Source of the DNA: an uncultured Deferribacteres bacterium
Lineage (GTDB): Bacteria; Zhuqueibacterota; Zhuqueibacteria; Zhuqueibacterales; Geothermadaptataceae
NCBI GenBank assembly: GCA_964014485.1
Contig: CAXHAT010000098.1
Location: forward strand, 1 to 27,593
Direction of reading: 5' to 3'
DNA length: 27,593 nucleotides
Shown: positions 6,244 through 26,985 of the stretch, piece by piece
Numbering within the stretch: position 1 is the stretch's first letter
Layout of the letters: each line of letters opens with the position of its first letter
Translations under genes and position numbers: made by a program
Notes under the pieces: generated by a model
What the model was told of the DNA's origin: nothing
Databases searched by the model: none
The model's input: the letters and a program-made list of their open reading frames with translations, nothing else

Positions 6244-6360
6244 GGTTGTTCTTTTGTCACTAGCTTTTTGCTATGATTACGCTCAGACAAACTAAAGTTC
6301 AAGCTTCAGCTCAATGTCGCTAACTTTTCATGATTCTGAGTTCATAATGACGGCCACAGC

Positions 6361-6461
6361 AAAGACACGCTAAAACGCGGACTACAAACGACAGAGTCTT
6401 TCTTTACGCTCAAAGGAAAAGAACGCATTGTCGTTTGTAGTCCATGCTTTAGCATGTTTTT
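6361..6461. repeat. REP doublet (REPIN-like) inverted repeat
   Basis: AAAGACACGCTAAAACGCGGACTACAAACGACA (6361-6393) is the imperfect reverse complement of TGTCGTTTGTAGTCCATGCTTTAGCATGTTTTT (6429-6461); each arm has GTAG followed by a small hairpin. Confidence 0.7.
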
Positions 6462-6576
6462 TCAAAACCGCTGTTTTGGACCCGAAAGGTAAAAAGTTGG
6501 TGACATTGCGTTTCAGCTTGCTTGCGTTTTTTATCCGGCTCGGAATGAACGAGAATTGTAACAACCGCCAGAAGAA

Positions 6577-6610
6577 TTGCGAGTAACTCGCAAGGCTAGC
6601 CTTGCACTCC
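6577..6610. repeat. Two overlapping palindromes (REP-like or terminator)
   Basis: TTGCGAGT-A-ACTCGCAA (6577-6593) overlaps the perfect 16-bp palindrome GCAAGGCTAGCCTTGC (6590-6605); GGAGT precedes it on the minus strand. Confidence 0.55.
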
Positions 6611-6621
6611 TTTGGCCAAGT

Positions 6622-6960
6622 TTACGATCCTTCGTTGAGTTCTTTGACTTTGTCGATCAACTTGATCATGTCTGAACGTTTGGCGTTGGAAACTTCCACC
6701 GTCGTACCGCCGTGCTGAATTTTTATCGTGCTGCCGGCGAAGTGGTTCTTGACAATTTCCAGCAGCGTATCGACGATCTTGTTGGTCGATTCCAGAAGCT
6801 CGGCGCCGAATTTGAACATTTTGCCGAGGTCTTCGAGCACCCCGCGCGTTGGTCCCATTTTAAACAAATGCATTTCGTTGCTTTGTGCAAAAGCGGCTTC
6901 AATTTTTTCGTCGTCCAATCCTTCGCCTTCAAAAACGAGCATAACTTTCGGTGTGCTCAT
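6622..6960 (-). CDS. Small hypothetical protein (112 aa)
   Basis: AAGGAG SD upstream of the ATG and protein-like composition; no family recognised with confidence. Confidence 0.75.
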   Translation of the reverse strand: MSTPKVMLVFEGEGLDDEKIEAAFAQSNEMHLFKMGPTRGVLEDLGKMFKFGAELLESTNKIVDTLLEIVKNHFAGSTIKIQHGGTTVEVSNAKRSDMIKLIDKVKELNEGS

Positions 6961-7029
6961 GGTTCTCCTTTTTGCCGTTTAAAGATTTGAAATGATTCTG
7001 TGTCGATTCCTACGGGTCGTCTTTTGCTA

Positions 7030-7301
7030 TTTTTGACAGGATTTACTGGATCAACCGGATTGCGTGACAACATAATTGTAAATCCAGGTTGTGACTGAAA
7101 ACCGAAAAGTGGGATGCAAGGTTTGCCTTGCCGTATCGTCGAAGACTTTTTCAATCTCGCCCAAAATTTACAGACGTTTTTCAGCCGGTCGACTGAAAGG
7201 CAAAGCAAGCTTTGCACTCCTTATCCGTTTTATGACTTTAGGCACAGATTGAGTCAATTTTCTGAGATAAATCCTGTCGATCTTGTTCATCCCGTCAAAA
7301 A
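7030..7301. repeat. Inverted pair of degenerate 9-mer (AATCCTGTC-type) repeat arrays flanking about 210 bp; MITE-like remnant
   Basis: TTTTTGACAGGATTTACTGGATCAACCGGATT (7030-7061) versus AATCCTGTCGATCTTGTTCATCCCGTCAAAAA (7270-7301). Confidence 0.6.
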
Positions 7302-7328
7302 AAACGACCACAGCCACAGCCTTCGAAA

Positions 7329-8819
7329 TCAAGCTAGAATGTCGTGAATGACTTTGCCGTGTACGTCCGTCAGGCGGAATTCACGTCCTTGAAATTGGTA
7401 GGTCAATTTTTCGTGATCCAGGCCAAGCTGATGCAAAATCGTTGCCTGAAGGTCGTGTACATGAACGCGGTCTTTGGTCCCGGAATAGCCGATCTCGTCG
7501 GTTTCACCGTAAGAAAACCCGCGCTTTAAACCGCCGCCGGTCGCCCACATAGTGAAGGCGTCGCCGTGATGGTCGCGTCCGGCGTAAGGATTGTCGTTTC
7601 CGCCGCGATTTTCCAGCATCGGCGTGCGACCAAATTCGCCGCCCCAGACTACCAAAGTTTCGTCCAGCATACCGCGCTGTTTTAGATCGAGAACCAGTGC
7701 TGTCATCGCTTGATCCACCTCTTTGCAGCGCTCGACAAAACCAATATTAAGCGCTTCAAATTTGTTGCTGCCGTGTGAATCCCAACCGCGATGAAAAAGC
7801 TGGATAAAGCGCACGCCGCGCTCCGCAAGTCGGCGCGCTAAAAGACAGTTGTTTGCAAAAGAAGTTTGCCCCTGCTCCGTTCCGTAAAGTTGATGAATAT
7901 GTTCCGGCTCTTGCGAAATATCCATTGCTTCAGGCACGGACATTTGCATGCGAAAAGCCAGTTCATACTGCGAAATGCGCGAAAGCGTTTCTGGGTCGCC
8001 CATCTCTTCGTAATGCTTGCGGTTGATTTCGGAAATCGCTTCGACGGCCCATTTCCGCACGTTGCGGGGCACGCCTTTTGGGTTGGAGATATAAAGCACC
8101 GGGTCGCCGTGAGAACGGCATTGCACGCCTTGAAAAACGGACGGAAGAAAGCCGCTTCCCCAAACGCTTTTGCCTGCACTCGGCGCTGATTGCCCAGAAA
8201 CCAGAACGACAAAACCCGGCAAATTTTGGTTTTCCGACCCGAGGCCGTAAGTCACCCACGAACCCATCGAGGGCCGTCCCATTCGCGCGTGGCCCGTGTG
8301 CATAAAAAGCTGTGCCGGGGCATGGTTGAACTCGTCGGTGTGCATTGCGCGCAAAAATGTCACGTCATCAACAACGCCGGAAAATTTGGGCAGCAGATTG
8401 GAAACATACGCCTGACTCTCGCCAAATTTTTTGAACGTGGTTTGGTGGCCAAGCATTTTCGGCACGCCTTTGATAAAAGCGAAACGTTTGCCTTCGAGCA
8501 AGGAATCCGGGCAAAGCTCACCATTCAATTTTTGCAAATCGGGCTTGTATTCAAACAACTCCAATTGGGACGGCGCTCCGGCCATGTGCAAAAAAATGAC
8601 TGATTTCGCTTTTGGCGCAAAATACGGCGGACGCATCTTGAAGGGTTGCGTCATGTCAAGCATTGCAGCTTCAGCGCTCGTTTCGTTTTGAAACGGCGTA
8701 CAGCCCGTCAAGTTTGCAAGCGCCATCGCGCCGAGGCCGGTAGAACATTTCCTTAAAAAATGCCGTCGCGTCAGCGCGCGTTCATTAAGCAGAGTAAGTT
8801 CGCCGAGAAGTTTCATCAC
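7329..8819 (-). CDS. DUF1501 family protein (sulfatase-like fold, Tat-like signal)
   Basis: TRRHFL, AKSVIFLHMAGAPSQLELF, PSMGSWVTYGLGSEN.NLPGFVVL, CLLARRLAERGVRFIQL, GEFGRTP, GRDHH and RLTDVHG motifs. Confidence 0.93.
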   Translation of the reverse strand: MMKLLGELTLLNERALTRRHFLRKCSTGLGAMALANLTGCTPFQNETSAEAAMLDMTQPFKMRPPYFAPKAKSVIFLHMAGAPSQLELFEYKPDLQKLNGELCPDSLLEGKRFAFIKGVPKMLGHQTTFKKFGESQAYVSNLLPKFSGVVDDVTFLRAMHTDEFNHAPAQLFMHTGHARMGRPSMGSWVTYGLGSENQNLPGFVVLVSGQSAPSAGKSVWGSGFLPSVFQGVQCRSHGDPVLYISNPKGVPRNVRKWAVEAISEINRKHYEEMGDPETLSRISQYELAFRMQMSVPEAMDISQEPEHIHQLYGTEQGQTSFANNCLLARRLAERGVRFIQLFHRGWDSHGSNKFEALNIGFVERCKEVDQAMTALVLDLKQRGMLDETLVVWGGEFGRTPMLENRGGNDNPYAGRDHHGDAFTMWATGGGLKRGFSYGETDEIGYSGTKDRVHVHDLQATILHQLGLDHEKLTYQFQGREFRLTDVHGKVIHDILA

Positions 8820-11236
8820 ATGAAGAGCGGGAATTTTGCAGGATACGCTTCATTCATCATTTCGTAAACTTTCTCAAAAATCTCTTCGACATTGGGCTTG
8901 GAAAAGTAATCGCCGTCCGAACCGTAAGCCGGGCGATGTTCTTTCGAAGAAATGGTGCGAGGCTCCGAATCGAGCCAGTGGTAACCGCCTTGTTTTTCAA
9001 TGACCTCGCACATCATGTACGCCGTACCGCCGCCGGGAACGTCCTCGTCTATAAAAACGATGCGACTGGTTTTCTTGAGCGATTCTAAAATAACGCCGTT
9101 GCGATCAAACGGGAGCAAACTCTGCACATCGATCACTTCCGGCTCCACCCCAACTTTTGCCAGCTTTTCCGCAGCTTCGAGCGTGATTCTACAGCATGCG
9201 CCGTAGGTGACGAGCGTGACGTCGCGGCCGTCGCGTAGAATTTCGGGTACGCCTAACGGGACGGTGAATTCGCCGATATTCTTTGGCAGCGGTTCACGTA
9301 TGCGATAGCCGTTGAGCACTTCAATGATGAGCGCGGCGTCATCGGATCGCAGCATGGTGTTATAAAATCCAGCGGCCTGGGTCATGTTGCGCGGGACGAG
9401 GACGTATATACCGCGCAAAAGATTGATTATGCTGGACATAGGTGAGCCAGAGTGCCAAACGCCTTCGAGCCGGTGCCCGCGAGTACGAATAATGGCCGGC
9501 GCTTTTTGCCCGGCTTTGGTACGCCATTGCACGGTCGCGAGATCGTCGGACATGATTTGGAGAGCGTACAGCAAGTAGTCCAAGTATTGAATCTCGGCAA
9601 TGGGTCGCAGGCCGCGCATAGCCAAACCAATTGCCTGCCCGATAATCGAAGCTTCTCGGATGCCGACGTCACTGACGCGCAATTCGCCGTACTTTTCCTG
9701 CATGCCCTTGAATCCTTGATTGACGTCGCCCAGCTTCCCCAAGTCTTCGCCAAACGCGAGCACCCTCGGATCACGTGCAAAAGCGGCGTCGAAACAAGCA
9801 TTCAACACATCGAATCCCATGAGGTGTTCCGGCTTTTCAGAGAATTCAGCCTTAATTTCCGGAATCTTTAGAGCGGATTTTTCAGAAGCGCTGTAAAGAT
9901 ATGAACCGTACCGATTTCCGCCTTCATCTAATTGCCGACGCTTCCAATCGAGCAATTCCCGGCGGGCCGGTGATTCTGAATTGCGGGTTAAAATCAACGC
10001 GTCATTGGCTGACGCCAAAATGTCTCGATGCAAAGGATAGGGAATCGCCGCCAATTGACTGCGCACGTTCTGAAGTTCGGAAGACGTCGTCCCGTTATTG
10101 TTCATTTCGTCGATTAATCCGGTGACAAAGCTGCGTTCTTTCTGAATCGGTTCAAGATAAGCTTTCCAGGCGCGATCCCGAGCGTCCGCCACATTTTGGC
10201 GCTCTTCGCTGTCGATAATTTCAAGATCGGCGTCTGACAACAACTCCTGCTCCAGCATCCATTCGCCCATTCTCTTGATGCAGTCATGGTCGTTCTCCCA
10301 TTGCAGACGCTCTTGCGATTTATAGCGCTCATGGCTGCCCGAGGTCGAATGCCCTTGCGGCTGGGTCAGCTCAATAACATGAATAATGGCAGGGATGTGT
10401 TCTTTGCGAACGCTTGCGGCGGCCTTTGTGTATGTTTCAACGAGCGAAGGATAGTCCCAGCCCTTAACCGTATAAAGATTGTAGCCTTCTTTCGAACGGC
10501 CTTTGCGCTTGAAGCCTTGCAGCAGTTCGGATAGATTTTGTTTGGTGAGTTGATATTTGTTGCTAACGGAAATACCGTAATCGTCGTCCCAAACCGAGAG
10601 CAACATGGGAACGGAGAGCACGCCGGCGGCATTGACCGACTCCCAGAATAATCCTTCGGCGCAGCTTGCGTTTCCGATCGTGCCAAATGCGATTTCATTC
10701 CCCTTTTTTGAGAAATTCTCGAATTGGTGCAGATCATCCAATTGCCGATAGAGTTTTGAGGCCTGCGCCAGCCCGACAAGCCGCGGCATTTGGCTTCCCG
10801 TCGGCGAAACGTCGGCGGAGGAGTTGTAAGATTCTGTCAGATTTTTCCAATTTCCGGCTTCGTCAAGGCTTCTCGTCGCGAAATGTCCGGTCATAGAGCG
10901 GCCGGCGCTCATCGGTTCAGCTTCAACATCCGCATGGGCGTAAAGCTGCGCGAAGAATTCTTGCGCTGTGTGGATTCCCAAAGCGAACATAAACGTTTGA
11001 TCACGGTAATATCCGGAACGAAAGTCGCCTTTTTTGAATGCTTTCGCCATCGCAAGCTGAGGCACTTCCTTGCCGTCGCCGAAAATGCCGAATTTCGCTT
11101 TTCCGCCCATAACTTCACGCCTGCCGATCAAGCTGGCGTGTCGGCTGCGCAACGCCCAGCGATAATCTTGCAGGATTTCGTCACGCGATAATTTAGTTTT
11201 GCCAAGCTCTATGACTTTTGCTTCCAAGTCAACCAT
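8816..11236 (-). CDS. Fused E1 alpha/beta 2-oxoacid (2-oxoisovalerate-type) dehydrogenase, TPP-dependent
   Basis: GKAKFGIFGDGKE, GHSTSGSHERYK, AFGEDLGKLGDV, GLRPIAEIQYLDY and HRPAYGSDGDYFSKP; Bacteroidetes-type fused architecture. Confidence 0.92.
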   Translation of the reverse strand: MVDLEAKVIELGKTKLSRDEILQDYRWALRSRHASLIGRREVMGGKAKFGIFGDGKEVPQLAMAKAFKKGDFRSGYYRDQTFMFALGIHTAQEFFAQLYAHADVEAEPMSAGRSMTGHFATRSLDEAGNWKNLTESYNSSADVSPTGSQMPRLVGLAQASKLYRQLDDLHQFENFSKKGNEIAFGTIGNASCAEGLFWESVNAAGVLSVPMLLSVWDDDYGISVSNKYQLTKQNLSELLQGFKRKGRSKEGYNLYTVKGWDYPSLVETYTKAAASVRKEHIPAIIHVIELTQPQGHSTSGSHERYKSQERLQWENDHDCIKRMGEWMLEQELLSDADLEIIDSEERQNVADARDRAWKAYLEPIQKERSFVTGLIDEMNNNGTTSSELQNVRSQLAAIPYPLHRDILASANDALILTRNSESPARRELLDWKRRQLDEGGNRYGSYLYSASEKSALKIPEIKAEFSEKPEHLMGFDVLNACFDAAFARDPRVLAFGEDLGKLGDVNQGFKGMQEKYGELRVSDVGIREASIIGQAIGLAMRGLRPIAEIQYLDYLLYALQIMSDDLATVQWRTKAGQKAPAIIRTRGHRLEGVWHSGSPMSSIINLLRGIYVLVPRNMTQAAGFYNTMLRSDDAALIIEVLNGYRIREPLPKNIGEFTVPLGVPEILRDGRDVTLVTYGACCRITLEAAEKLAKVGVEPEVIDVQSLLPFDRNGVILESLKKTSRIVFIDEDVPGGGTAYMMCEVIEKQGGYHWLDSEPRTISSKEHRPAYGSDGDYFSKPNVEEIFEKVYEMMNEAYPAKFPLFM

Positions 11237-11479
11237 TGTCCGTCTCCTATTTCCTCATATTGGGACAAAATTTTGTATCGTATGCGGTTTTTATCTCTTG
11301 AGATTTCGTAAAGCTAAGTAAAAATAGAAAACTATCAAGCAAAGAAGGTCGGCTTTTGCTGGCGGTTTTGTCGCATCTGAAGCTATATTTGTAAAAAACG
11401 AACCGCTGTCTTAATTCATCAACTCAAGGAGTTTTTTTACTTAGCGATTTCGGGAAGTTATCGCAAAGGCCCAATCTGT

Positions 11480-12658: not shown

Positions 12659-12740
12659 CTCCGCTTGGTTTATCCTGAGAGCATAGAAAATAGATACTTA
12701 AACCAAGCAAGCAATTTGAACCAAAAAGGGGAGAAGGTTC

Positions 12741-13460
12741 ATGGGTAAGCCCAAACAAAGAGTACGATTAGGAGCTGGTCGGATGCTGCCTTCGATGTGG
12801 GGTAACGAGCAAGAATTCTTGAGGTACTGCGCAGAGCATCCCGATGACGCCGAAGCCTGGAACATGTTTTATGATGCGTTCGACGAATTCATCATCTTGA
12901 TCTCCTACAGGGAAACAGAGCGCTATTTTGGCCCGTCAGGCTTTCAATCCAACGGCCCGACCGTTCAAGACGTGGTACAAGATACTTATTTCAAGTTGGT
13001 CAAGGATGATTGCGAGGTTCTAAAGCGGTTTAGAGGCGATTCGTTCGTCGCTTTTCGTAGTTTTCTTGCCGTAATGATTCGCAATCTGGTGGGAAATCAC
13101 AAAACGGCCGCCAATGCGGCAAAGCGCCCCAAAATTGATCCGGGTCCAAATTCGCAAGACAACGAATATCTTGAGCGTCAGCTATTCGATTTGTCTTATC
13201 GCCAAAAAAACCTCGAGAGTTTGAGAGACGAAACGGTCAACTATAAAATGTTGTACTTGGACGTAAAAAAGCTTTTAGATGAATATGCAAAGTTAGACGA
13301 CCAAAACGCAAGAAACGCACTTATTGCAAAGTACTATTTTCTCGATGATCTTCCCGTGTCTGACATTGCTGAAAACTATTTGTCGGATATAAAGGAGAAG
13401 ACAATCAGTAATAACATCAGCATGATGAAACAATATCTCAAAAAGAATTTGGGAGGATAG
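12741..13460 (+). CDS. ECF-type RNA polymerase sigma factor (divergent)
   Basis: Region 2: DAEAWNMFY...VQDVVQDTYFKL...LKRFRG...FRSFLAVMIRN. Region 4: YYFLDDLPVSDIAE...EKTISNNIS..KQYLK. GGGGAG SD; followed by a zf-HC2 gene. Confidence 0.85.
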   Translation: MGKPKQRVRLGAGRMLPSMWGNEQEFLRYCAEHPDDAEAWNMFYDAFDEFIILISYRETERYFGPSGFQSNGPTVQDVVQDTYFKLVKDDCEVLKRFRGDSFVAFRSFLAVMIRNLVGNHKTAANAAKRPKIDPGPNSQDNEYLERQLFDLSYRQKNLESLRDETVNYKMLYLDVKKLLDEYAKLDDQNARNALIAKYYFLDDLPVSDIAENYLSDIKEKTISNNISMMKQYLKKNLGG

Positions 13461-13604
13461 TCTGCAATTTCCGCAGATCGACGAACGGAAAGACGTTTTT
13501 GCTCCAGTTTTCGCATGAAAATATTTACTGGACAATCACACTGAAGCTATTTATTACTCAAGCTTATCCAAGCGCGATAAATTAGAAAAATTAATTAATT
13601 TAGC

Positions 13605-13678: not shown

Positions 13679-14674
13679 ATGATAACAAACGATCCAATGT
13701 ACCATCCATCTCTTGAAAAACTATACGATTTTCAGCAAAAAAACCTTTCAGACGATGAGCAAGTTAAAATAGAAATCCACTTGTCTAAATGTGATACTTG
13801 CCTGGAAGAATATTCATCTTTTGTTCGCAACGCCACAACGCCTGCAACGCTGGAAGAAAAACACGCCATTCAGAGAATGCGTAAATTGACCAAAGATGAG
13901 CAAGTCGAAAAAATAATGACGTATGCCGGGCGGAGCGCCCCAGCAATCGCCGCCGACCCGCCTCGCGGTAATACGCTTATGGCAATTGCACGCACAATTT
14001 TTCAGAGTCAAAATACGCTCAAATTGGTCGGATTTGCAGCCGCTACAGTGCTAATATTCGTCTCCTGGAAAATTATGAACCCATCCTTTGAAATGCATAA
14101 AGTCGACGAGAAAATAGATAAAATCGACCAAGATATTACCAGCGCCTATAAACCTAAGGCCGATTCTCCGGTTCGTTTCATGAACAGCACTCCCCCACAC
14201 CCTCTTGGGGATGAGATGGGTGGATCAGCTTCGGACGCATTGATCGCGCAGTTGCGCAAGGACGCCGAAAGCGGTAGCCAAACAGATTCGCTGCATGCCA
14301 TACGCGTTATACTCAAAAAACTCATTATTGGCGGGAACACATCGGAAGCGCAAAAGATGGCGAACAGCCTGTACAACTTCAAAGACAAGGGCGATCTGCA
14401 TTTTCTCGTCGATTTAGCCTCTGCAAATATTGAACTGGGGAACTCACTTCGCGGCACAGAACTTTTCAAGTTAGCGAATGAAAAATACCCCAATTCCGCT
14501 TCCGTTCTTTATAGTCTTGCCCAACTCGCCTGGGAAAAACAAGAACAAGGCAAAGCGATAGCCTTAATGCGGGAATCAATTAAACATGAAACTCACGCAA
14601 GATGGGCAACCGTTTCAGAGGGTATAGTAGAAAAATGGGAAGCTGAGATTAAAAATCGGGAAAAGCTGCATTAA
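13679..14674 (+). CDS. Anti-sigma factor: zf-HC2 (ZAS) domain, single TM helix, C-terminal TPR
   Basis: H9...H34-LSK-C38-DT-C41; TM LVGFAAATVLIFVSW; TPR-like YPNSASVLYSLAQLAWEKQEQGKAIALMRESIK; AAAGGGG SD. Confidence 0.85.
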   Translation: MITNDPMYHPSLEKLYDFQQKNLSDDEQVKIEIHLSKCDTCLEEYSSFVRNATTPATLEEKHAIQRMRKLTKDEQVEKIMTYAGRSAPAIAADPPRGNTLMAIARTIFQSQNTLKLVGFAAATVLIFVSWKIMNPSFEMHKVDEKIDKIDQDITSAYKPKADSPVRFMNSTPPHPLGDEMGGSASDALIAQLRKDAESGSQTDSLHAIRVILKKLIIGGNTSEAQKMANSLYNFKDKGDLHFLVDLASANIELGNSLRGTELFKLANEKYPNSASVLYSLAQLAWEKQEQGKAIALMRESIKHETHARWATVSEGIVEKWEAEIKNREKLH

Positions 14675-14880
14675 ACACCAACTAAAGCATCAAGGTTTAA
14701 AGGGGCGTCGCTCAACTTCACACGATCATCTCAAACGCGCTCTTTCTATTATCGCTTAACTCAAAAAACGTGTTCGAATGAAATTTCGGAAAATGAGCGC
14801 AGTCGAAATCTCATTATTGCGGATTTGAGTTCAAGCTAAACATCGCTTCTTAGTCATCACTCAACAAAGAGGGGTAAATT

Positions 14881-16377
14881 ATGCAAAAGTCCAACCATCA
14901 TGCGTCGCCTTTCCGTGAACGTACGCCGTTGAGCAACGCAAATGAGGCTGACAAAATTGCTGTAGAGCTACTAGAGTTGATTTTGGGAAGAATGACCAGC
15001 GCGAAGTTTGACGCTGCTGAGATCGAAAAATCAGTCGCACATTTAGAAGCGTCGCCTCAGCACAAAGTCGACCTGCCGAAAGCTGATTCATCTGTTTCAC
15101 AGACGAATGTCGCCGCTTTCGAAACTGCCTTGCGGAGCTTTCATTGGTACCTGCCTTTCGACAAAGCCGCGCGAAGCAGTGAAGAGCTTGATCATGCCAA
15201 AAGTTTAGCAGAAAAAGTGGATAACTACCGGAAAACCGACTACTGGTTGCCTTTAACTGAATATCTTGGCGATTCAACTGTCGAGCAACGCAGAGCTTGG
15301 CAGGCTGCCAGGTACGCACATCTGGAAGCCCAGAGGGCTCTCCATCAAGGGGATTTCGCCAGCGTGAAAGATAACGCCATTTATGGATATCAAAAATTGT
15401 CGGATGCACCGGACGAAAGGTTATTTCTAAACCTTAGCGCGCGTGTACAATCTGCGCTCGCTCTCGGGGACAAAGCAATCAATCTGGCAGTCTTTCTTGG
15501 CCAATGGTTATTTAACAAAGGCAAAAAAATTGGATTTCATATGCTTTCTGCGAACGTCGCTTATAATATGGGCGACCAACTGATTCTTAACGGGAGGTTC
15601 GACGAAGCAAATCACTGGCTAATAGAAACTGAGAAGGTCGCAACTAGCTGGCCAAACATCCGGAAGATTGGTTATTACAAAACCTTTGCTCTTGAACGAA
15701 AAGCAGTTGTCGCCAGAAGGCGCCGAGATTTGACAAAAGCCAGAAAACTTTTGGAACAATTCAAAAAAGAAGTTGATGCAGCCAAGAATGAGAAATGGGG
15801 GAACGAGAAGAAAGCTGAGATTCTTTATTACCAAGGTCTTGGGTTGATTTATGAAGAGGACAAAAAACACGATAAGGCGGAAGCAGCTTTTCATCAAGCA
15901 CACTCTCTTGCCTCAGCCAAGCCAACGAACGGGCAATCCAAGTATGAAGACGCTTACAATGCATGGGCGGCCAAGACTGCACTTGCCTGCAACAGCTTGC
16001 TAGCACGGCAAGACTCAGCCAAAACACTCAAACACCTTGAAGACGCCGTAGACGTCGGCTCCCAAATTCCCGGCTTTCTGAACGCAGACAGACGATGCAC
16101 CGTCGAGATTTATAGAGCGGAAGCGTTTATGAATAACGGCAATGATTCTGACGCCGAAGCCTGTTTGCAGAGAGCCGAAGAATTGCTGGAAGCTGTAGAT
16201 TCGCCTCGCCTTACGGCTCGTAAAAGAATAACGGACGCACAATTTCTCATCAATCGCGGCGAAAAAGCGGAAAGTGATCAGCGTTTTGATGAAGCGGAAC
16301 AGATATCCGCTGAACACGGCATTTACAATTACCTCGAAATGATCAAAGGCTTGCGAAATACAGATCAATCAAGCTAA
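14881..16377 (+). CDS. TPR-repeat protein, paralog of the TPR region of the downstream CHAT protein, lacking the protease domain
   Basis: TPR patterns (AYNMGDQLILNGRFDEA; YQGLGLIYEEDKKHDKAEAAF); collinear shared motifs with 16734-19892; GAGGGG SD. Confidence 0.85.
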   Translation: MQKSNHHASPFRERTPLSNANEADKIAVELLELILGRMTSAKFDAAEIEKSVAHLEASPQHKVDLPKADSSVSQTNVAAFETALRSFHWYLPFDKAARSSEELDHAKSLAEKVDNYRKTDYWLPLTEYLGDSTVEQRRAWQAARYAHLEAQRALHQGDFASVKDNAIYGYQKLSDAPDERLFLNLSARVQSALALGDKAINLAVFLGQWLFNKGKKIGFHMLSANVAYNMGDQLILNGRFDEANHWLIETEKVATSWPNIRKIGYYKTFALERKAVVARRRRDLTKARKLLEQFKKEVDAAKNEKWGNEKKAEILYYQGLGLIYEEDKKHDKAEAAFHQAHSLASAKPTNGQSKYEDAYNAWAAKTALACNSLLARQDSAKTLKHLEDAVDVGSQIPGFLNADRRCTVEIYRAEAFMNNGNDSDAEACLQRAEELLEAVDSPRLTARKRITDAQFLINRGEKAESDQRFDEAEQISAEHGIYNYLEMIKGLRNTDQSS

Positions 16378-16409
16378 ACTCACTTCTAATCTTTCAAAGG
16401 AGAAAAAGC

Positions 16410-16490
16410 ATGATTCTGAACATCAAAGTTGTTATGACCGAAGCAAGCGGCGGCGGCGGTCCAATCGACGATCCGCCGGATCCGGATTGA
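16410..16490 (+). CDS. Unannotated 26-aa peptide MILNIKVVMTEASGGGGPIDDPPDPD
   Basis: AAAGGAG SD 7 nt upstream of the ATG at 16410, 32 nt after the TPR gene stop; TGA at 16488-16490; GC-rich Gly/Pro/Asp codons within AT-rich intergenic DNA. Shorter than any ORF in the track. Confidence 0.75.
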   Translation: MILNIKVVMTEASGGGGPIDDPPDPD

Positions 16491-16733
16491 TTGACTGAAT
16501 TTGCCTCGAGCAATCAAAAAAACATCGGCAGAGAATCCATTTCAAAAAATGTGACTTCTCTGTCGATAAATCCTATATTTTTCATAGAAAACTCACCCAT
16601 TTTTCAACCCGCCCCGGCATTCACTATTTGTCTTCCCTTCTTTGGCTTTTTTGAGCTTTCTCCTCAACAAAAATTATGTTATTCTTTATTTACAATTTTT
16701 GCATAAATAAACGACAATAGCACTTTCCTAACT

Positions 16734-19700
16734 ATGGAAAATCAAAAAACCAAGCGGGTCTTGAAAATTCAAAAAGCTTTGGGCGTTACTCTACTTCTCT
16801 CTCTTCTTATTCATCAGGCATGCATATTCCAGGAAACAAATTCGCTGAAAAAATATAATCGAGCCGTCTTGGCAGCCGGAACGCAAGAAGAGACTGAAAA
16901 AATTGTCGATGAAGCTCTCAACTTTATCACCACTAAAGAGTTATTTGAAGATTCAGAAAATTGGGTAGTGCAAGCTTACAAAGATAGTTGCGAAAAAATT
17001 CTCCTTGAAATTGTTGACGAAATCAATTCTTTAAACTCCATAATTTCAGACAGCGCTTCGATCAAGCTGTCAGAACTCCCTTGGCGACGAAAATTTTTCT
17101 TTGCACTACCATATCTGCGAACAGACTTCCCCGCCGATTCAGCCGACAAAATCATTAAAAACGCTGCCGCTATTCTTGAAGCTCCGCAATTCTCAGATTA
17201 CAATACCAGACTTAATGACGTTTTAGCCAAGCAAGACTCCTTGTATTACGCCCCGCATATCGTACAATTCTGCGCCAATATGAGCGGCAGATCGTTTGAC
17301 GACGGTAATTTCAAGCGTGCTAAAAACGCAGCGGCTTATGGGATACAGCTTGGAGTGAAACTTCCCGATCAGCGAAGAATGTTGCCTCCCCTGGCACGAT
17401 ATCAAGCGGCTGTTTTTGCAGATGAGGGCCTTTTTCATTTAGTAAAAGCAATTGGCGAACGAGTTGTACGCAAATCTATTGACGGCAACTATTTGGGAAC
17501 CGCTCTAAATATGCTCTACAATCTCGGCGATCAGCATATTCAGACCGAAGAACTGGAAGAAGCATTGCGTTATCTATCATCTGCTCAAGAATTCCTAAAA
17601 GAGCAAAAAGATAGACTTAGCCCGAGAACGCAGGAATGGTACGGCAAGCGCCTTTTGGAAAGAATGGCAGTCGTGTATAGAAAATTTGGCGAGAATAAAC
17701 TCGCTCAACAGAACCTTCAGGAATACGAAAAGTTAGTAAAAACTGGCAAAGAAAACGTACTTCTGCACAATTTCCGAGGCTTGAACTATCGGAATGTCGG
17801 CCAATTCGCCAAAGCAAAAGACGAATTTCTCGCTGGGATCAAAATCGCATCACGGCAGGAAGGTGGCGGAGTCTTAGACATTCACAACTTGTTCGTACTC
17901 ATTCATAACCTGGCTGAATTGCATCTGGAGTATGATTTTTACGATGATGCGCTAAAAGTTTGGGAGTCGTGGAAACAGTACGAAGCCTTTGCTCCAGACT
18001 TAACGAACTATCCCGGAAAAAACGCATCACCATTGCAAAACAACGAGGCCAACTTGCACGGCGACCAACTCGATGCTCAGGCGTTGGATAAAGAAGCTGA
18101 CGCTTCCTCCATCAAAGGGTTTATGAACGTCCCAAGAAGGATTGACCGCGATATATTAGGTGCAGAAATTTTCTATAAGCTTGGGCGAAAAGAAAAAGCC
18201 GAACTTTTGATTTCAGACCTGCTGGACAATGTTGACGCTCTCAATTTGAAAAAACACCAGATCGAACTTGCACTGTCTGCTTCGCATATCATTGCTTCTA
18301 TTAAGGGCTATGAAACAGCTAGAAGTCGACTTTTAGACGCCGCAAACATCGCAGAAGACGACGGTTCGTTCCTGAGAAGAATTGATCTAAAGATTCTTGA
18401 ATTTGAGCTTGCGCAGTCGTTCCAAAAGGCTGATGTATCAGTAGCCGATTTCGCAGACCTTATCAGTGAGATTGAAGAAAAAGGATATTATAGCCTTTTA
18501 CCAAAAGCTATAGGTTTGGTCATCAAGTTTGCCTGGAAAACTCAACAAAGGAATCTGGCCCTCGAATATGCTCAAAAGATGTTTGACGTCGTGAAGGATG
18601 TTTCCGAACAGCAAGAAACGGTTGAAGGCGCCACCTTTTACAACCACAGTACAGACGACGGCGTCAAAACAGCCATAGAATGCTTGTTGCGATTTGGCGA
18701 TGATGAAGAGGCGTTTCTCCAGCTTAACCGATTCAAGAACATGGCGATGCGAAATAAATTGCTCGCAACAGACGAAGGCGCATTAGCTTATTCAGATATT
18801 CAACCTTTTTTGCGTCCCGGTGAAACTTTAATTGATTATTTTTCAGGTGATACGCTTTATGCCTTTGTTGTTCAAAGAGACGGGTTTTCTGTGAAGCGGT
18901 TTGACGTAACGCGCCTTGAGTTGCAACGCTTGACGAACGAATACTTCAACATTGTTTCCGACGAAGGCTTGCTAACAGGTCAGCAGGGCGGCAAAACATT
19001 TTACAGGTCGGAATATTTAAAGACTTTGGAAAAATCTCATCAATTGTATAAAAAAGTTGTACAAAAAATAGACGTGGATATTCCAGATTCGGAAAGGCTT
19101 TTAATCGTTCCGGACGCGCACCTTTACAGTCTGTCGTTTGCTTCGTTGGCCATCGAATCGGCGGAGAAAAGAAATGACCAGTTTCTTATCGAAAAGCATG
19201 CCATTGCTTATCTTCCAGGCGCTTGGGCGTTGAAAAACCGGCAGCAGCCAGTTGATTCTACGCCATTCAATTCAATCGTAGCTTCACTCTCAACAAACAT
19301 GCGCGGTGCGGAAGCGCTAAACGAAAAAACCGCATCTCTTTTTCCGGCGCTCCATCGCGATATCAGAAAATCGTGGAAAGACAAGGAAGAATTTTGGGCT
19401 GCAATAAAAACCGACCCAGACATTTCATTGCTTTTTGCGCACGCATTCGCGAGTTGGGAAAACCCGCAGCAATCGTTCATTGAGCTTCCTCTTTCCGACA
19501 GCACTTTGGACGCATTATACGCTCATGAGCTTGAAGGTATTGGAGTAATCAATAGTCGTCTTGCCATTCTGGCTGGCTGTGAAACCATAGGCGTAAGAAC
19601 ATATTGGGGCTCTGGGCTTGTTGGTCTGCAGCGCTCGCTTATGCTCGCCGGAATCGACCAAGTTGTTTCGACAAATTGGAAAGTTTTTTCCATTGAAGCT

Positions 19701-19892
19701 GCAAACACAATAGCAGATTTTTTAGGTGAGTTCAAAAATGAACGCGACCCGATTATCGCATTGCAAAAAGCGCAAATCATGGCGATAGACAGGCTCAAAA
19801 AAGATCGCAATGTTCATTTCCCTTTTCCGCATATTTGGAGCGCATACACTTTGTATGGTTTAGAACAAGACAATGCGCCAAGCACGAATTAG
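16734..19892 (+). CDS. TPR-CHAT (caspase-like, clan CD) protease with N-terminal signal/anchor
   Basis: CHAT motifs ETLIDYF...LYAFVV, LLIVPDAHLYSLSFASL, FLIEKHAIAYLP, LFAHAF (His903), LAILAGCET (Cys949), GLVGLQRSLMLAG...VVSTNWKV, ALQKAQ, PHIWSAY; hydrophobic N-terminus ending in QAC. Confidence 0.92.
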   Translation: MENQKTKRVLKIQKALGVTLLLSLLIHQACIFQETNSLKKYNRAVLAAGTQEETEKIVDEALNFITTKELFEDSENWVVQAYKDSCEKILLEIVDEINSLNSIISDSASIKLSELPWRRKFFFALPYLRTDFPADSADKIIKNAAAILEAPQFSDYNTRLNDVLAKQDSLYYAPHIVQFCANMSGRSFDDGNFKRAKNAAAYGIQLGVKLPDQRRMLPPLARYQAAVFADEGLFHLVKAIGERVVRKSIDGNYLGTALNMLYNLGDQHIQTEELEEALRYLSSAQEFLKEQKDRLSPRTQEWYGKRLLERMAVVYRKFGENKLAQQNLQEYEKLVKTGKENVLLHNFRGLNYRNVGQFAKAKDEFLAGIKIASRQEGGGVLDIHNLFVLIHNLAELHLEYDFYDDALKVWESWKQYEAFAPDLTNYPGKNASPLQNNEANLHGDQLDAQALDKEADASSIKGFMNVPRRIDRDILGAEIFYKLGRKEKAELLISDLLDNVDALNLKKHQIELALSASHIIASIKGYETARSRLLDAANIAEDDGSFLRRIDLKILEFELAQSFQKADVSVADFADLISEIEEKGYYSLLPKAIGLVIKFAWKTQQRNLALEYAQKMFDVVKDVSEQQETVEGATFYNHSTDDGVKTAIECLLRFGDDEEAFLQLNRFKNMAMRNKLLATDEGALAYSDIQPFLRPGETLIDYFSGDTLYAFVVQRDGFSVKRFDVTRLELQRLTNEYFNIVSDEGLLTGQQGGKTFYRSEYLKTLEKSHQLYKKVVQKIDVDIPDSERLLIVPDAHLYSLSFASLAIESAEKRNDQFLIEKHAIAYLPGAWALKNRQQPVDSTPFNSIVASLSTNMRGAEALNEKTASLFPALHRDIRKSWKDKEEFWAAIKTDPDISLLFAHAFASWENPQQSFIELPLSDSTLDALYAHELEGIGVINSRLAILAGCETIGVRTYWGSGLVGLQRSLMLAGIDQVVSTNWKVFSIEAANTIADFLGEFKNERDPIIALQKAQIMAIDRLKKDRNVHFPFPHIWSAYTLYGLEQDNAPSTN

Positions 19893-19928: not shown

Positions 19929-20600
19929 TTGAACGCTTCATTCTCCGTTATCACCCTTTTCTTTTCCTCTTTGTTAACGCAAAACCCACAAGGGCTTGAG
20001 AGTCCAACTCGTGACAACCCTTTGCTCATCGACCAAGAAAAGCGAGAAACTCAAATTCTCGCACAATTTACGCCCAAGCGATTTTCGAATCATCAAAACG
20101 ACATGGCGGGCTATCACGCCGTTGTCTGGAGAGGCGGAAAGGCGAGTGACTTGGCGCTTTTTAAGAGCTTCGTTAGTGATAGAGAAACGCTTGCCGCCCT
20201 GCAAAAAATAGGCGGCGTTCCCGGAAACAATCTTTCACAGAAAACATGGGATGACCGCAAAAACCGCAAAAGCAGTGCGGCGGACGCACGCATTCTTGGG
20301 ACGCGCATCGAAATGCTCGTCACTTGGGAAGGCTTGCAAAAGCCGCTCTCGTTGGCGGAAATCTTGAATGATCCAGGGGGCAAGGGCATCGATTTGCGTT
20401 TTGGCGGTAATAAAGAAATCATTAAAAACTGGCAATCCGGCTGCATTGTTTGCCTGTATAGCTGCCCTGGAAGCAAAGCAGGAAATCACGCCTACACAGT
20501 GCGTGATTTTGTCGACAAGAAAACGCGGTTTACCGTTGATTTTGAGCGAGTTCCAAAAGAGAAAACGGACGTTGTACTTATTTTCAGGCTTGTAGAGTAA
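19929..20600 (+). CDS. YdjY-like exported protein with Cys cluster
   Basis: AL..IGG.PGNNL, VTWEG, FGGN and SGCIVCLYSCPG motifs; TTG start uncertain. Confidence 0.65.
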   Translation: MNASFSVITLFFSSLLTQNPQGLESPTRDNPLLIDQEKRETQILAQFTPKRFSNHQNDMAGYHAVVWRGGKASDLALFKSFVSDRETLAALQKIGGVPGNNLSQKTWDDRKNRKSSAADARILGTRIEMLVTWEGLQKPLSLAEILNDPGGKGIDLRFGGNKEIIKNWQSGCIVCLYSCPGSKAGNHAYTVRDFVDKKTRFTVDFERVPKEKTDVVLIFRLVE

Positions 20601-24371: not shown

Positions 24372-25379
24372 ATGAGACGACAAAGCATTTTTCACAGTTT
24401 AAAACTCGCAATATTGACGGCATGTATCGCTGGGTGCGGCGGGCAAGAGACCGACGACGGACAAGTCACAATCGCCGTGATTCCGAAAGGCACAACGCAT
24501 GTTTTTTGGCAGTCAATTCACGCTGGGGCCCGGAAAGCTGAAGCCGAAACGGGAGTTAAGGTTATTTGGGTCGGCCCGGAAAAAGAAGATGACCGCCAAC
24601 AGCAAATTGCGCTGATTGACAATCAGGTGATCAATCAAGTTGACGGCGTCGTCGTAGCGCCGCTTGATGAAACTGCGCTTCGTCGTCCCATTCGCGACGC
24701 CGTAAATCGCAGCGTGCCGGTTGTTATTATGGACTCCGCTTTGAAAGACGCTGATGACATTTACGCAAGTTTCGTTGCGACCGACAATGTGGAAGGCGGA
24801 AAATTGGCGGGCAGACAGATGGCGGAGATGTTAGGCGGCAAGGGCAGAGTCATCATGCTGCGGCTCCAGGAAGGCTCGGCCAGTACGGAAAAACGTGAGA
24901 ACGGCTTTCTTGAAGCCATCGCCGAGTTCCCGGATATTGAAGTTGCAAGTTCTGAGCAATACGGCGGGGTCACCACAGCCTCGGCGCAACAGGCGAGCGA
25001 GAATCTTTTGCTGCGTTTCAAGGATTCTGACGGAAATCTGACCATTCACGGCGTTTTTTGCCCCAATGAATCGACGACGCACGGCATGTTGCAAGCGCTC
25101 CGCCGACAGCGACTCGCCGGAGGAATGAAATTCATCGGCTTCGACGCAGCGCCAGCCTTGATTGAAGGCATGGAAAAAGATGAAATTCACGGTTTGGTGG
25201 TGCAGGATCCTTTTAAAATGGGCTATCTCAGCGTCAAGACCATGCTCGCCCATCTCAATGGCGAAAGCGTTGAAAAGCGCATCGACACCGGCGTTTATTT
25301 TGTGACCAAATCCAATTTGTCAGAACCGAATATTCAAGAACTTGTTGCGCCGGACTTGGCGAAGTGGCTGGAGCAGTGA
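24372..25379 (+). CDS. Sugar ABC transporter substrate-binding lipoprotein (RbsB-like)
   Basis: Lipobox IAGC; IAVIPKGTTHVFW, VATDNVEGG, FIGFD and VVQDPFKMGY motifs. Confidence 0.93.
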   Translation: MRRQSIFHSLKLAILTACIAGCGGQETDDGQVTIAVIPKGTTHVFWQSIHAGARKAEAETGVKVIWVGPEKEDDRQQQIALIDNQVINQVDGVVVAPLDETALRRPIRDAVNRSVPVVIMDSALKDADDIYASFVATDNVEGGKLAGRQMAEMLGGKGRVIMLRLQEGSASTEKRENGFLEAIAEFPDIEVASSEQYGGVTTASAQQASENLLLRFKDSDGNLTIHGVFCPNESTTHGMLQALRRQRLAGGMKFIGFDAAPALIEGMEKDEIHGLVVQDPFKMGYLSVKTMLAHLNGESVEKRIDTGVYFVTKSNLSEPNIQELVAPDLAKWLEQ

Positions 25380-25455: not shown

Positions 25456-26985
25456 GTGAATGCTGAAAAGTCCAGTCCCGATATTGCGTTAGAAATGCAA
25501 GGCGTTTCAAAACGCTTTGGCGCTACAGTCGCGCTGGACGGCGTTGATTTAACACTTAAAAAGGGCGAAGTCCACGCCCTTGTCGGTGAGAACGGAGCAG
25601 GCAAAAGCACACTGATGAAAATTCTCTCCGGCGCGCATCAAGCGAACGCCGGAAAAATGCGTTTGTTTGGAAGGGCTTATCAACCGTCCGGGCCTTTGGA
25701 AGCGCGGCGGCTTGGCGTAGCGATGATTTATCAGGAGCTTTCACTTGCGCCGCATTTGACTGTGCAGGAAAATATTTTTCTCGGCGCAGAACACACGACG
25801 AAAGGCGTTTTTCTCGACCGGGAAAAAATGCGCGACAAAACGCGCGAAGTTCTCGCGCAATTCGATCACCCTGAAATCAAGCCGGAAACGCAAGTTTTAA
25901 AGCTTTCCCAAAGCGCGCAGCAATTGGTGGAGATTGCCCGCGCCCTTTCCGCCGGCTGCCAAATTCTGGTCTTCGACGAACCGACGAGCAGCTTGGCGCA
26001 ACAGGATATCCAGAGACTTTTTGAGATTATCCGGCAACTTCAAGACAAAGGTTTATCGATCATCTACATTTCCCATTTCCTGGAAGAAGTGCAGGAAATT
26101 GCAGACCGCGTTACAATTCTACGCGACGGGCGAGCGGTTGGCACGCATGAAATCAATGCAATTTCCACTGATGACGTCGTGCGAGCAATGGTCGGACGGG
26201 AGATTGAAGCACTTTACCCGCGCTCATCCCGGACGCGCGGCGAAAAATTGCTGCAAGTCTCGAATCTGGCCGGTTTTGAAAAGCCAATTGACGCGTCGCT
26301 CGAACTGTATCGCGGCGAGGTTCTGGGAATCTGCGGTCTCGTCGGCGCAGGGCGGACTGAGTTTTTGCGTGCGCTTTTTGGCCTTGATCCGGTGGTAAAC
26401 GGTGAGATTCGAATTGGTTTGGCCTCGGGGATTGCAACGCCGCGAAAACGGTGGCAACAAGGCGCGGGCATGTTAAGCGAGAGCAGAAAAGAAGAAGGTT
26501 TGGCTATCAATCTCAGCATCGCTGAAAACGTCACCCTTTCAAAACTGCACGGCTTTGGGCCGTCTATGCTCGTGCTTCCCGGCAAACAAAATGAGAGCAC
26601 GCAATTTTGGATTGACGAGCTGGACATTCGGTGTGAAAATCCGGCACAAGCCGTTGAAAATCTCTCCGGCGGCAATCAACAAAAGGCCGCGCTTGCTCGA
26701 CTTTTACAACACGACGTGGACATTCTTTTGCTCGACGAACCGACGCGCGGCGTAGACGTAGCCGCCAAAGCAAAAATCTATGAAGTTATTGACGCCATCG
26801 TTTCCGGCAAGGACGGCAGAACGCCGAAAGCCGTTCTCATGGTCAGCAGCTACTTGCCCGAATTGCTCGGCGTTTGTGATCGTATCGCCGTCATGTCGCG
26901 CGGCAAACTTTTGCAAGCACGACCCGTGGAAGAAATGGACGAGCACCAACTCATGCTTGCCGCAACGGGACAGTCTTCGGAATAA
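25456..26985 (+). CDS. Sugar ABC transporter ATP-binding protein (RbsA-like, two NBDs)
   Basis: GENGAGKSTL, FDEPTSSL, LSGGNQQK, LLDEPTRGVDV and SSYLPELL motifs. Confidence 0.95.
   Translation: MNAEKSSPDIALEMQGVSKRFGATVALDGVDLTLKKGEVHALVGENGAGKSTLMKILSGAHQANAGKMRLFGRAYQPSGPLEARRLGVAMIYQELSLAPHLTVQENIFLGAEHTTKGVFLDREKMRDKTREVLAQFDHPEIKPETQVLKLSQSAQQLVEIARALSAGCQILVFDEPTSSLAQQDIQRLFEIIRQLQDKGLSIIYISHFLEEVQEIADRVTILRDGRAVGTHEINAISTDDVVRAMVGREIEALYPRSSRTRGEKLLQVSNLAGFEKPIDASLELYRGEVLGICGLVGAGRTEFLRALFGLDPVVNGEIRIGLASGIATPRKRWQQGAGMLSESRKEEGLAINLSIAENVTLSKLHGFGPSMLVLPGKQNESTQFWIDELDIRCENPAQAVENLSGGNQQKAALARLLQHDVDILLLDEPTRGVDVAAKAKIYEVIDAIVSGKDGRTPKAVLMVSSYLPELLGVCDRIAVMSRGKLLQARPVEEMDEHQLMLAATGQSSE

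Follow-up and report, generated by a model that had tools for sequence, protein, structure and literature searches.

Among the described systems closest to the locus analysed here is DdvA/DdvS of Myxococcus xanthus, in which a sigma factor of the extracytoplasmic function (ECF) type is held by a ZAS-type zinc-finger anti-sigma factor across the membrane (PMC11506125). According to the passages of that paper on the system, the TPR-CHAT module of DdvA is periplasmic, has a His/Cys dyad and is proposed to initiate regulated proteolysis, and DdvA is the one studied example of a sigma/anti-sigma switch with a periplasmic TPR-CHAT protease, its trigger being unknown; securin is named there as the inhibitor of separase (PMC11506125). 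CHAT genes also occur near ECF54 sigma factors that lack anti-sigma factors, according to the passages on this context in PMC8999054. The object of this work was a 27,593-nt stretch of DNA from an uncultured Deferribacteres bacterium (contig CAXHAT010000098.1, positions 1 to 27,593), referred to over its whole length as the window, and within it a 26-codon gene located between the genes of a TPR protein and a TPR-CHAT protease. The original prediction, made from the sequence letters, took this frame for a hidden gene whose product is a ligand, inhibitor or substrate of the TPR and CHAT proteins, possibly processed at its glycine run. That the gene is real and linked to the TPR and CHAT genes stood up to the analysis, while cleavage at the Gly run and secretion found no support. 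The explanation that accounts best for the data as a whole, which we regard as probable though by a modest measure, is that the peptide gene belongs to a conserved, undescribed signalling cassette.

Small gene between the TPR and CHAT genes

The peptide gene (16410–16490, plus strand) starts with the ATG at 16410 and comprises 26 codons followed by the TGA at 16488–16490; its translation is MILNIKVVMTEASGGGGPIDDPPDPD. The Shine-Dalgarno (SD) sequence AAAGGAG (16396–16402, plus strand), read directly, is located 7 nt (AAAAAGC) ahead of the ATG. The frame is separated by 32 nt from the stop of the preceding TPR gene (16377) and by 243 nt from the start of the following CHAT gene (16734). Direct reading and translation thus confirmed the predicted SD sequence, spacing, start codon and 26-aa product, and the absence of the gene from the open reading frame (ORF) track is accounted for by its length, below the 60–80 aa cut-offs of the ORF lists. 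A 6-mer SD with an ATG 4–9 nt further on occurs at only seven sites, counted over the two strands of the 27.6-kb window; four of these (16410, 24372, 11236 and 6960) are the starts of ORFs taken as genes, as matched by ORF-list coordinates and with gene status being a judgement. SD-like purine tracts precede about half of the window genes. Pfam and NCBIfam searches with the peptide returned nothing above the cut-offs.

Homologous SD-led small ORFs adjoin the CHAT gene in other genomes, and for this reason we take the frame to be, very likely, a genuine conserved small-protein gene. The search with the CHAT protein covered 41 related genomes. Its closest relatives were found in four genomes of another family of the same order (G021, G025, G017 and G023; E from 1e-60 to 1e-68). 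Their identity to the window protein was 26–28% over 890–1,054 columns in the three compared and 29% in G017, the CHAT copy of which is cut by the contig start and was excluded from the 26–28% comparison. Scanning homologous TPR-CHAT loci for SD-led short ORFs, a check put forward with the original prediction, revealed such an ORF no more than about 40 nt from the CHAT stop in all four genomes and in the metagenome contig L054. The SD (GGAGG or GAGGAG) lies 6–8 nt ahead of the ATG in the four free-standing genes and in the fused gene of G025. The peptides are 22–24 aa long in G021 (MFIFSAPAMPDADGGGSNNDGP), G017 (MLTWPEMLIPHADGGGVGSNNDGP), L054 (MFIFPVMLTPDAGGGGSNDDGP) and G023 (22 aa, with the same pattern). 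In G025 the start MFFIPTMVMPDEPGSNGDGPGDPDG leads into a basic flank, after which come two hydrophobic helices; the whole protein has 112 aa. Since L054 was retrieved through the TPR protein alignment after the pattern had become known, its peptide, found at the predicted place, counts as a prediction borne out.

The four 22–24 aa peptides share the end ...DGP-stop, with differing stop codons. In the alignment, the window segment ...GGGGPIDDPP-DPD stands opposite ...GSNGDGPGDPDG of G025. The window peptide ends where the fused G025 protein enters its membrane flank, and the four shorter peptides end earlier, at DGP.

Family of membrane proteins sharing the tail

Around more distant CHAT homologs, a protein of 104–165 aa was encoded immediately downstream of the CHAT gene in 13 of 15 further loci; the remaining two were L043, with a different small membrane protein, and L048, which ends 12 nt after CHAT at the contig end and was left out of the judged loci. 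Over the 20 loci L031–L050, the tail was present beside CHAT, free or fused, in 18 of 19 judgeable cases, and in 14 of the 20 loci it forms the start of a full-length membrane protein. The N-termini of these proteins are of two types, M.S.LNI(S/A)PE....GGGGPEDDPRF and ...LLLS(D/E)AD.K.GPPPTD. The tail of about 25 residues, flexible, acidic and rich in Gly and Pro, consists of a hydrophobic start, D/E, a Gly run and then P-x-D-D-P. It is followed by two hydrophobic transmembrane (TM) helices, and proteins of the main branch end with YNLLVVRRLNLFGLESS-x-D.

The window tail, ILNI...TEASGGGGPIDDP, fits the consensus LNI(S/A)PE....GGGGPEDDP, and the window gene adjoins a TPR-CHAT gene in a sigma/anti-sigma cassette, upstream of CHAT here and downstream elsewhere. 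The two-helix hairpin and the C-terminal YNLLVVRRLNLFGLESS-x-D are absent from the window gene, and no remnant was found in any downstream frame. These comparisons identify the window peptide as the N-terminal tail of the two-TM protein encoded on its own, and hence as a truncated derivative of the family, not a full member. The same frame remains open after the TGA for 70 more codons (16491–16703), up to a TAA, in AT-rich sequence. The translation of 16491–16703 gave no match to the family profile, and read-through into a membrane domain is not indicated.

With a family profile built without the window peptide, the window frame ranked first of 1,021 six-frame contig segments, with an E-value of 0.096 in this set, and was aligned to profile positions 4–25, which correspond to the tail. 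The full-family hmmsearch was run with --max on the contig and with default filters on the genome. With a tails-only profile the frame took second place among the 294,690 segments of the genome, where its E-value was 3. The sequence match by itself is insufficient; it is match and position together that carry the case.

Among 1.84 billion proteins, the two-TM family comprised 84 representative clusters at 50% identity. Its 35 clusters at 90% identity are all "hypothetical" or unnamed, except for P0035 ("putative flippase GtrA"), and scanning of both Pfam and NCBIfam revealed no model for the family. No description of the small partner was found in the literature searched, the coverage of which was incomplete, with the supplementary tables of PMC11506125 outside it. 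One match to the family profile, P0093 (1,651 aa), was set aside as a repetitive low-complexity sequence.

The window's own genome also contains the fused form, on another contig (L042). A third CHAT cassette of this genome, on another contig (L043), has its CHAT gene at 5486–8512 on the minus strand. Downstream of it, a small protein with one TM segment is encoded in place of the tail protein; its C-terminus (...GLFNLTGKNSDPPELDE) resembles the tail and C-terminal motifs of the family, at the opposite end of the protein.

Two forms of the cassette

In the window, the cassette lies on the plus strand and begins with an ECF-like sigma factor gene (12741–13460; TIGR02937, E 1.9e-10, 40.6 bits against a cut-off of 42.9, and a weak Sigma70_r2 match), homologs of which head the related cassettes. 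The next gene (13679–14674) encodes an anti-sigma-like protein of 331 aa with an N-terminal HxxxCxxC motif, a TM segment at residues 114–134 and a C-terminal TPR region; it has weak zf-HC2 and RsrA-type matches and homologs in 14 related loci, and by sequence it looks like a membrane-spanning ZAS anti-sigma factor. It is followed by the TPR protein gene (14881–16377), whose 498-aa product, TPR498, matches Pfam TPR families and has neither a signal peptide nor a TM segment. Beyond the peptide gene lies the gene for the TPR-CHAT caspase-like protease of 1,052 aa (16734–19892; Pfam CHAT, E 9.2e-28). The columns of its His (FAHAF) and Cys (AGCET) are conserved in 14/14 aligned proteins; a sequence search of the PDB with this protein gave 0 matches.

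The common form of the cassette has the order sigma factor, ZAS-TM-TPR anti-sigma factor, gene 3, gene 4, anchored TPR-CHAT protease and two-TM tail protein, the last usually of about 110 aa. Gene 3 encodes a membrane protein of 414–725 aa, and gene 4 a product of 133–226 aa that starts with M.PLHP.FRK; like the two-TM protein, neither had a match above the Pfam or NCBIfam cut-offs. By eye, the N-terminal two-helix part of the gene 3 product has the LR..LLGL...G...G....YN.L pattern of the two-TM protein (L035, 3143–4975; L038, 9320–11062; L032, 10894–12468; L046, 2892–4136), which suggests a paralogous origin of the two membrane modules and the possibility that they pair. The large C-terminal domain of the gene 3 product has the conserved end ...F.YDRL.AK.NR. 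An ESM Atlas match of the gene 3 product to an M64 peptidase cluster, at 0.90, was set aside as lying within the range of shuffled proteins; the other matches were unnamed clusters.

The second form, found in the window, G021, G023 and L054, consists of sigma factor, anti-sigma factor, CHAT, free peptide and TPR498 genes, with genes 3 and 4 missing; on the 4.3-kb contig of G017, CHAT, peptide and TPR498 genes are the only ones visible. In the window the peptide gene is preceded by TPR498 and followed by CHAT, whereas the other loci have the order CHAT-peptide-TPR498. All five free peptides occur with TPR498 and without genes 3 and 4. On the other side, phmmer found a TPR498 match in none of the 14 fused-tail loci among L031–L050. 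G025 has the common form, with genes 3 and 4, a fused tail and no TPR498; its CHAT protein is basal in the second-form group of the tree, and, as read from the ORF lists, G025 shares flanking genes with G023. The predicted functional link with the TPR and CHAT genes is supported, as the peptide travels with them in every judgeable related locus.

Two of the genomes are unpublished. G023 (L033) accounts for a single free peptide out of the five and for one row each of TPR498 and CHAT, and G016 (L044) for one fused-tail locus. With both removed, free peptides occur with TPR498 in 4/4 cases, the tail is present in 16/17 judged loci, and the conclusions hold.

The sigma-like proteins of L032 (13900–14679, minus strand) and L054 (516–1295, plus strand), each of 259 aa, appear to have an N-terminal hydrophobic segment at about residues 19–41 before region 2, a feature of their sequences that hints at a membrane-tethered sigma factor.

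Origin and fold of TPR498

TPR498 is homologous to the N-terminal half of the CHAT protein: it is a copy of its scaffold/TPR region without the CHAT domain, and it starts where the CHAT sequence resumes after the membrane anchor (...SLRD(Y/F)E..C..T.D...). The five TPR498 proteins group together (support 91/91) in the tree built on the shared region, and their group is sister to the CHAT scaffolds from G021, G023, G025 and L054. The AlphaFold2 model of TPR498 is a TPR superhelix (pLDDT 88), and its fold neighbours include the peptide-binding TPR proteins LGN (with bound partners), NprR and phage Rap (with its pheromone), as well as MalT domain III and DdvA. Prediction of a complex of TPR498 with the peptide scored 0.03 against a mark of 0.32, for a peptide chain shorter than the calibrated 30 residues, and so bears on binding in neither direction.

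The TPR498-peptide variant is rare. A search of genome contigs for the TPR498 type returned three loci, coinciding with three already known; metagenome contigs added one new locus (L054), and no further stand-alone copy was found in any of the 29 genomes of the order.

Predicted topology of the tail

The AlphaFold2 model of a two-TM family member, based on a 39-row alignment, had a mean pLDDT of 78.5. Residues 1–14 were below 50, and the disordered tail is followed by long helices at 21–54 and 70–105. Lysine and arginine counts favoured a topology with both termini inside in 30/30 two-TM family members, after nine of the 39 had been dropped because the hydropathy rule gave a single TM call. 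The tail is thus predicted to be cytoplasmic. A hydrophobic N-terminus or export signal was absent from the peptide and from 5/5 TPR498 proteins. The CHAT proteins, on the other hand, have a basic N-terminus followed by a hydrophobic anchor in 14/14 cases, and one CHAT paralog has a lipoprotein-like signal by reading of its N-terminus. Because of these anchors the protease is predicted to be outside the cytoplasm, as in DdvA.

Proposed role

The tail may act as a cytoplasmic short linear motif, and in the variant found in the window the free peptide would dock in the groove of the TPR498 superhelix. Docking on TPR498, suggested by sequence and structural models, is possible, although we put it somewhat short of an even chance. 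The soluble peptide/TPR498 pair would replace membrane-tethered parts and tune the sigma/anti-sigma switch, perhaps by holding the sigma factor, by holding the ZAS domain or by serving as an adaptor, with the protease arm of the switch working outside the cytoplasm. The fullest version of this scheme is more speculative, and we offer it tentatively. The tail would have been freed as a 22–26 aa peptide at least once, possibly twice, each time paired with a newly soluble copy of the TPR sensor scaffold of the CHAT protease itself; the pair would replace three membrane modules, and the peptide would be a dedicated intracellular ligand setting the switch, for example as an anti-anti-sigma adaptor.

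Several points weigh against this interpretation. The gene is known through sequence comparison; the stretch is present in three DNA sequencing runs of one study, and no RNA runs are listed. The match of the tails-only profile, at E 3 and rank 2 of 294,690, is not significant genome-wide. The co-occurrence of peptide and TPR498 could go back to just one or two events in evolution and is not a statistic. The window rows stand on long tree branches, and the order of events is therefore uncertain. The similarities of TPR498 to solved folds are of the kind general to TPR superhelices, and that it binds the peptide is something we infer. The topology was derived from hydropathy and the positive-inside rule only; a periplasmic tail would make the CHAT or anti-sigma TPR domains likelier ancestral partners. 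Finally, the tail also occurs in two-TM proteins, in which it has no free C-terminus, and models based on a C-terminal carboxylate cannot be general.

If the scheme is correct, the locus would be a natural case of a linear motif turned into a stand-alone regulatory micro-protein. The locus is also a clean example of the origin of a micro-protein by truncation of a longer gene, and it shows that the tail alone can persist as a gene of 22–26 aa, missed by standard gene callers. The 26-mer is a synthesizable handle for finding the partner of the tail and the setting of the switch.

Alternative explanations

The peptide could instead be a securin-like substrate or pseudo-substrate of the CHAT protease, lying along the TPR-CHAT protein and occupying its active site or being cut there, for example after the conserved D/E that follows the hydrophobic start. 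Its genomic position fits such a role, since the small gene adjoins CHAT in the window, in L054 and in 18 of the 19 judgeable L031–L050 loci. The protease retains an intact His/Cys dyad, the tail is disordered, and the tails share hydrophobic residues, P/A/T and D/E that look like protease sites by eye. In the passages of PMC11506125 on this point, separase, a relative of TPR-CHAT proteins, has securin as its controlling inhibitor. Against this stands a mismatch of compartments: CHAT is anchored for export in 14/14 proteins, the peptide has no signal, and the tail is predicted to be cytoplasmic in 30/30 members. Moreover, the 15 best genome matches of the tail profile include no tail-like motif of the anti-sigma or CHAT proteins. 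The originally proposed role of a CHAT substrate or inhibitor has consequently become less likely, and we consider it improbable.

Another explanation would have the frame act in cis, as a leader or arrest peptide, the Pro/Asp-rich end of which stalls the ribosome and, with a hairpin, sets the expression of the next gene, CHAT in the window and TPR498 in the relatives. Pro-rich and Pro-stop ends slow elongation and termination; the window peptide ends with DDPPDPD-stop and the four 22–24 aa orthologs with D-G-P-stop. A hairpin does follow the peptide stop: a long imperfect stem at 16524–16567 (plus strand), 34 nt past the stop in the AT-rich 243-nt spacer before CHAT, was the only long stem common to the minimum free energy and centroid folds (z = -2.67 for the whole 361-nt stretch). 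Although not a canonical terminator, it could form the 3' end of an RNA or act as an attenuator. In the orthologous loci, inverted repeats were also seen by eye after the peptide stop, but they are not alignable between loci, and the hairpins are conserved neither in sequence nor in position. The promoter and terminator scan of 14600–17000 gave counts at shuffle level, with no terminator-like site after the peptide. Rfam returned two chance-level matches on 16000–17000 (E 0.63 and 0.65), far below the gathering scores. More importantly, the motif heads a full-length membrane protein in 14/20 loci and in most of the 84 clusters, which indicates that it acts as part of a protein, and Pro-Pro or Pro-stop is absent from most fused tails. 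A leader or arrest peptide is unlikely on these grounds.

The frame could also be a decaying, functionless stump left after deletion of the membrane domain of a two-TM gene, and the peptide is indeed clearly a truncated form of a longer gene family. Decay is at odds with the retention of SD, start and stop in five loci, with CHAT proteins only 26–28% identical between the window and the other group. The three short peptide genes compared differ by 6–7 synonymous and 7–9 non-synonymous changes over 22 codons, and in their last three codons and stop by changes at silent positions only, D-G-P-stop being kept. The position of the ...DGP stop is retained even though the last codons occur in three synonymous versions and the stop codon in two. 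The different end point in the window, after DPD, suggests two separate truncations, both retained, and the membrane domain has left no trace downstream. A functionless remnant therefore has little probability.

Pfam analysis of 21 ORFs revealed no peptide exporter, C39 peptidase or peptide-modifying enzyme in the window, in agreement with the initial remark that no RiPP-modifying enzyme or dedicated exporter is adjacent; the only ABC ATPase of the window (25456–26985) follows a sugar-type periplasmic binding protein (24372–25379). The remaining explanation, an exported double-glycine-leader signal cut at the Gly run and sensed by extracellular TPR proteins, is very improbable: the Gly run does lie mid-peptide, but the hydrophobic and Glu leader positions of the consensus are absent by eye in every Gly-run register, cleavage would fall before Pro, a C39 peptidase or ABC peptide exporter is missing from the window, the homologs carry the stretch as the predicted cytoplasmic start of a membrane protein, and the TPR498 partner has no signal peptide. 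The suggested leader cleavage releasing GPIDDPPDPD is likewise not supported, the same stretch being the N-terminus of a membrane protein in most relatives.

Other features of the window

A search for common promoter words upstream of the cassette genes yielded AT-rich 7–9-mers only, which are not interpretable. The word (C)ATAGAAAA(CT) or its core TAGAAAA occurs in four intergenic regions, at 11324–11333, 12682–12690, 13583–13589 and 16583–16592, upstream of the SprT-like, sigma, anti-sigma and CHAT genes, respectively. A promoter or operator element common to these genes could explain it, as could chance in AT-rich sequence.

An ORF of 223 aa with a TTG start (19929–20600), located 36 nt past the CHAT stop, matches the NCBIfam model YdjY (E 1.1e-21, 77 bits, cut-off 50). 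Since phmmer found no match to it in the related CHAT loci, it is probably outside the cassette. At 1912–2681, on the minus strand, a PIN-domain toxin (PF13470, E 6e-23) is encoded; the gene upstream, which overlaps it, codes for a MazE/AbrB-type antitoxin, and the two make up an ordinary VapBC-like pair. Also on the minus strand, the gene for a DUF1501 protein (7329–8819; E 4.5e-154) overlaps by 4 nt the gene at 8816–11236, which encodes an 806-aa fused E1 dehydrogenase/transketolase-like protein; this pairing is unusual.

Comparison with known systems

In double-glycine leaders, such as those of class II bacteriocins and ComC, hydrophobic and Glu residues are conserved ahead of GG, and the bond that follows GG can be cleaved. 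The window peptide differs from them in having no consensus register by eye, a Pro after the Gly run and no C39 exporter or ABC exporter for peptides nearby, and the double-glycine leader suggested at first is not supported. With securin-separase, the locus shares the combination of a small disordered acidic protein and a TPR-like CHAT-clan protease, but there is no sequence relation, and the predicted compartments of peptide and protease differ.

RRNPP pairs (Rap, NprR, PlcR and PrgX) resemble the window in that a short peptide is encoded beside a TPR superhelix protein, and the fold matches of TPR498 include NprR (5dbk, TMq 0.54) and phage Rap with its pheromone (8rsv), restricted to the TPR superhelix. 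In RRNPP systems, a secreted pro-peptide with a signal is recognized by a receptor consisting of TPR repeats and an effector (helix-turn-helix or phosphatase) domain. In contrast, the window peptide has no export signal, TPR498, with TPR matches only, has neither a DNA-binding nor a phosphatase domain, and the surrounding genes form a sigma/anti-sigma/protease cassette.

The two-TM family shares with the window gene the tail, the position adjacent to CHAT and the SD-led start. Unlike its members, the window gene ends ahead of the basic flank and has neither the two helices nor the conserved C-terminal RRLNLFGLESS-x-D.

In contrast to the CHAT context of ECF54 sigma factors, as given in the passages of PMC8999054 concerned, the window contains an anti-sigma factor. 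Similarity to DdvA is seen in the ECF sigma partner (40.6 bits, below the 42.9 cut-off), in the CHAT His/Cys dyad conserved in the window, and in the match of the TPR498 model to the DdvA structure (8rw5, TMq 0.51). The passages of PMC11506125 on DdvA mention no small partner protein or peptide. Unlike the single ZAS-TM-TPR-CHAT polypeptide of DdvA described there, the window splits these functions between the 331-aa anti-sigma factor and the 1,052-aa CHAT protein and has extra genes. The locus shows that the TPR-CHAT sigma/anti-sigma module also occurs in a much wider, split form, in which a small partner, unnamed in databases, is a constant member.

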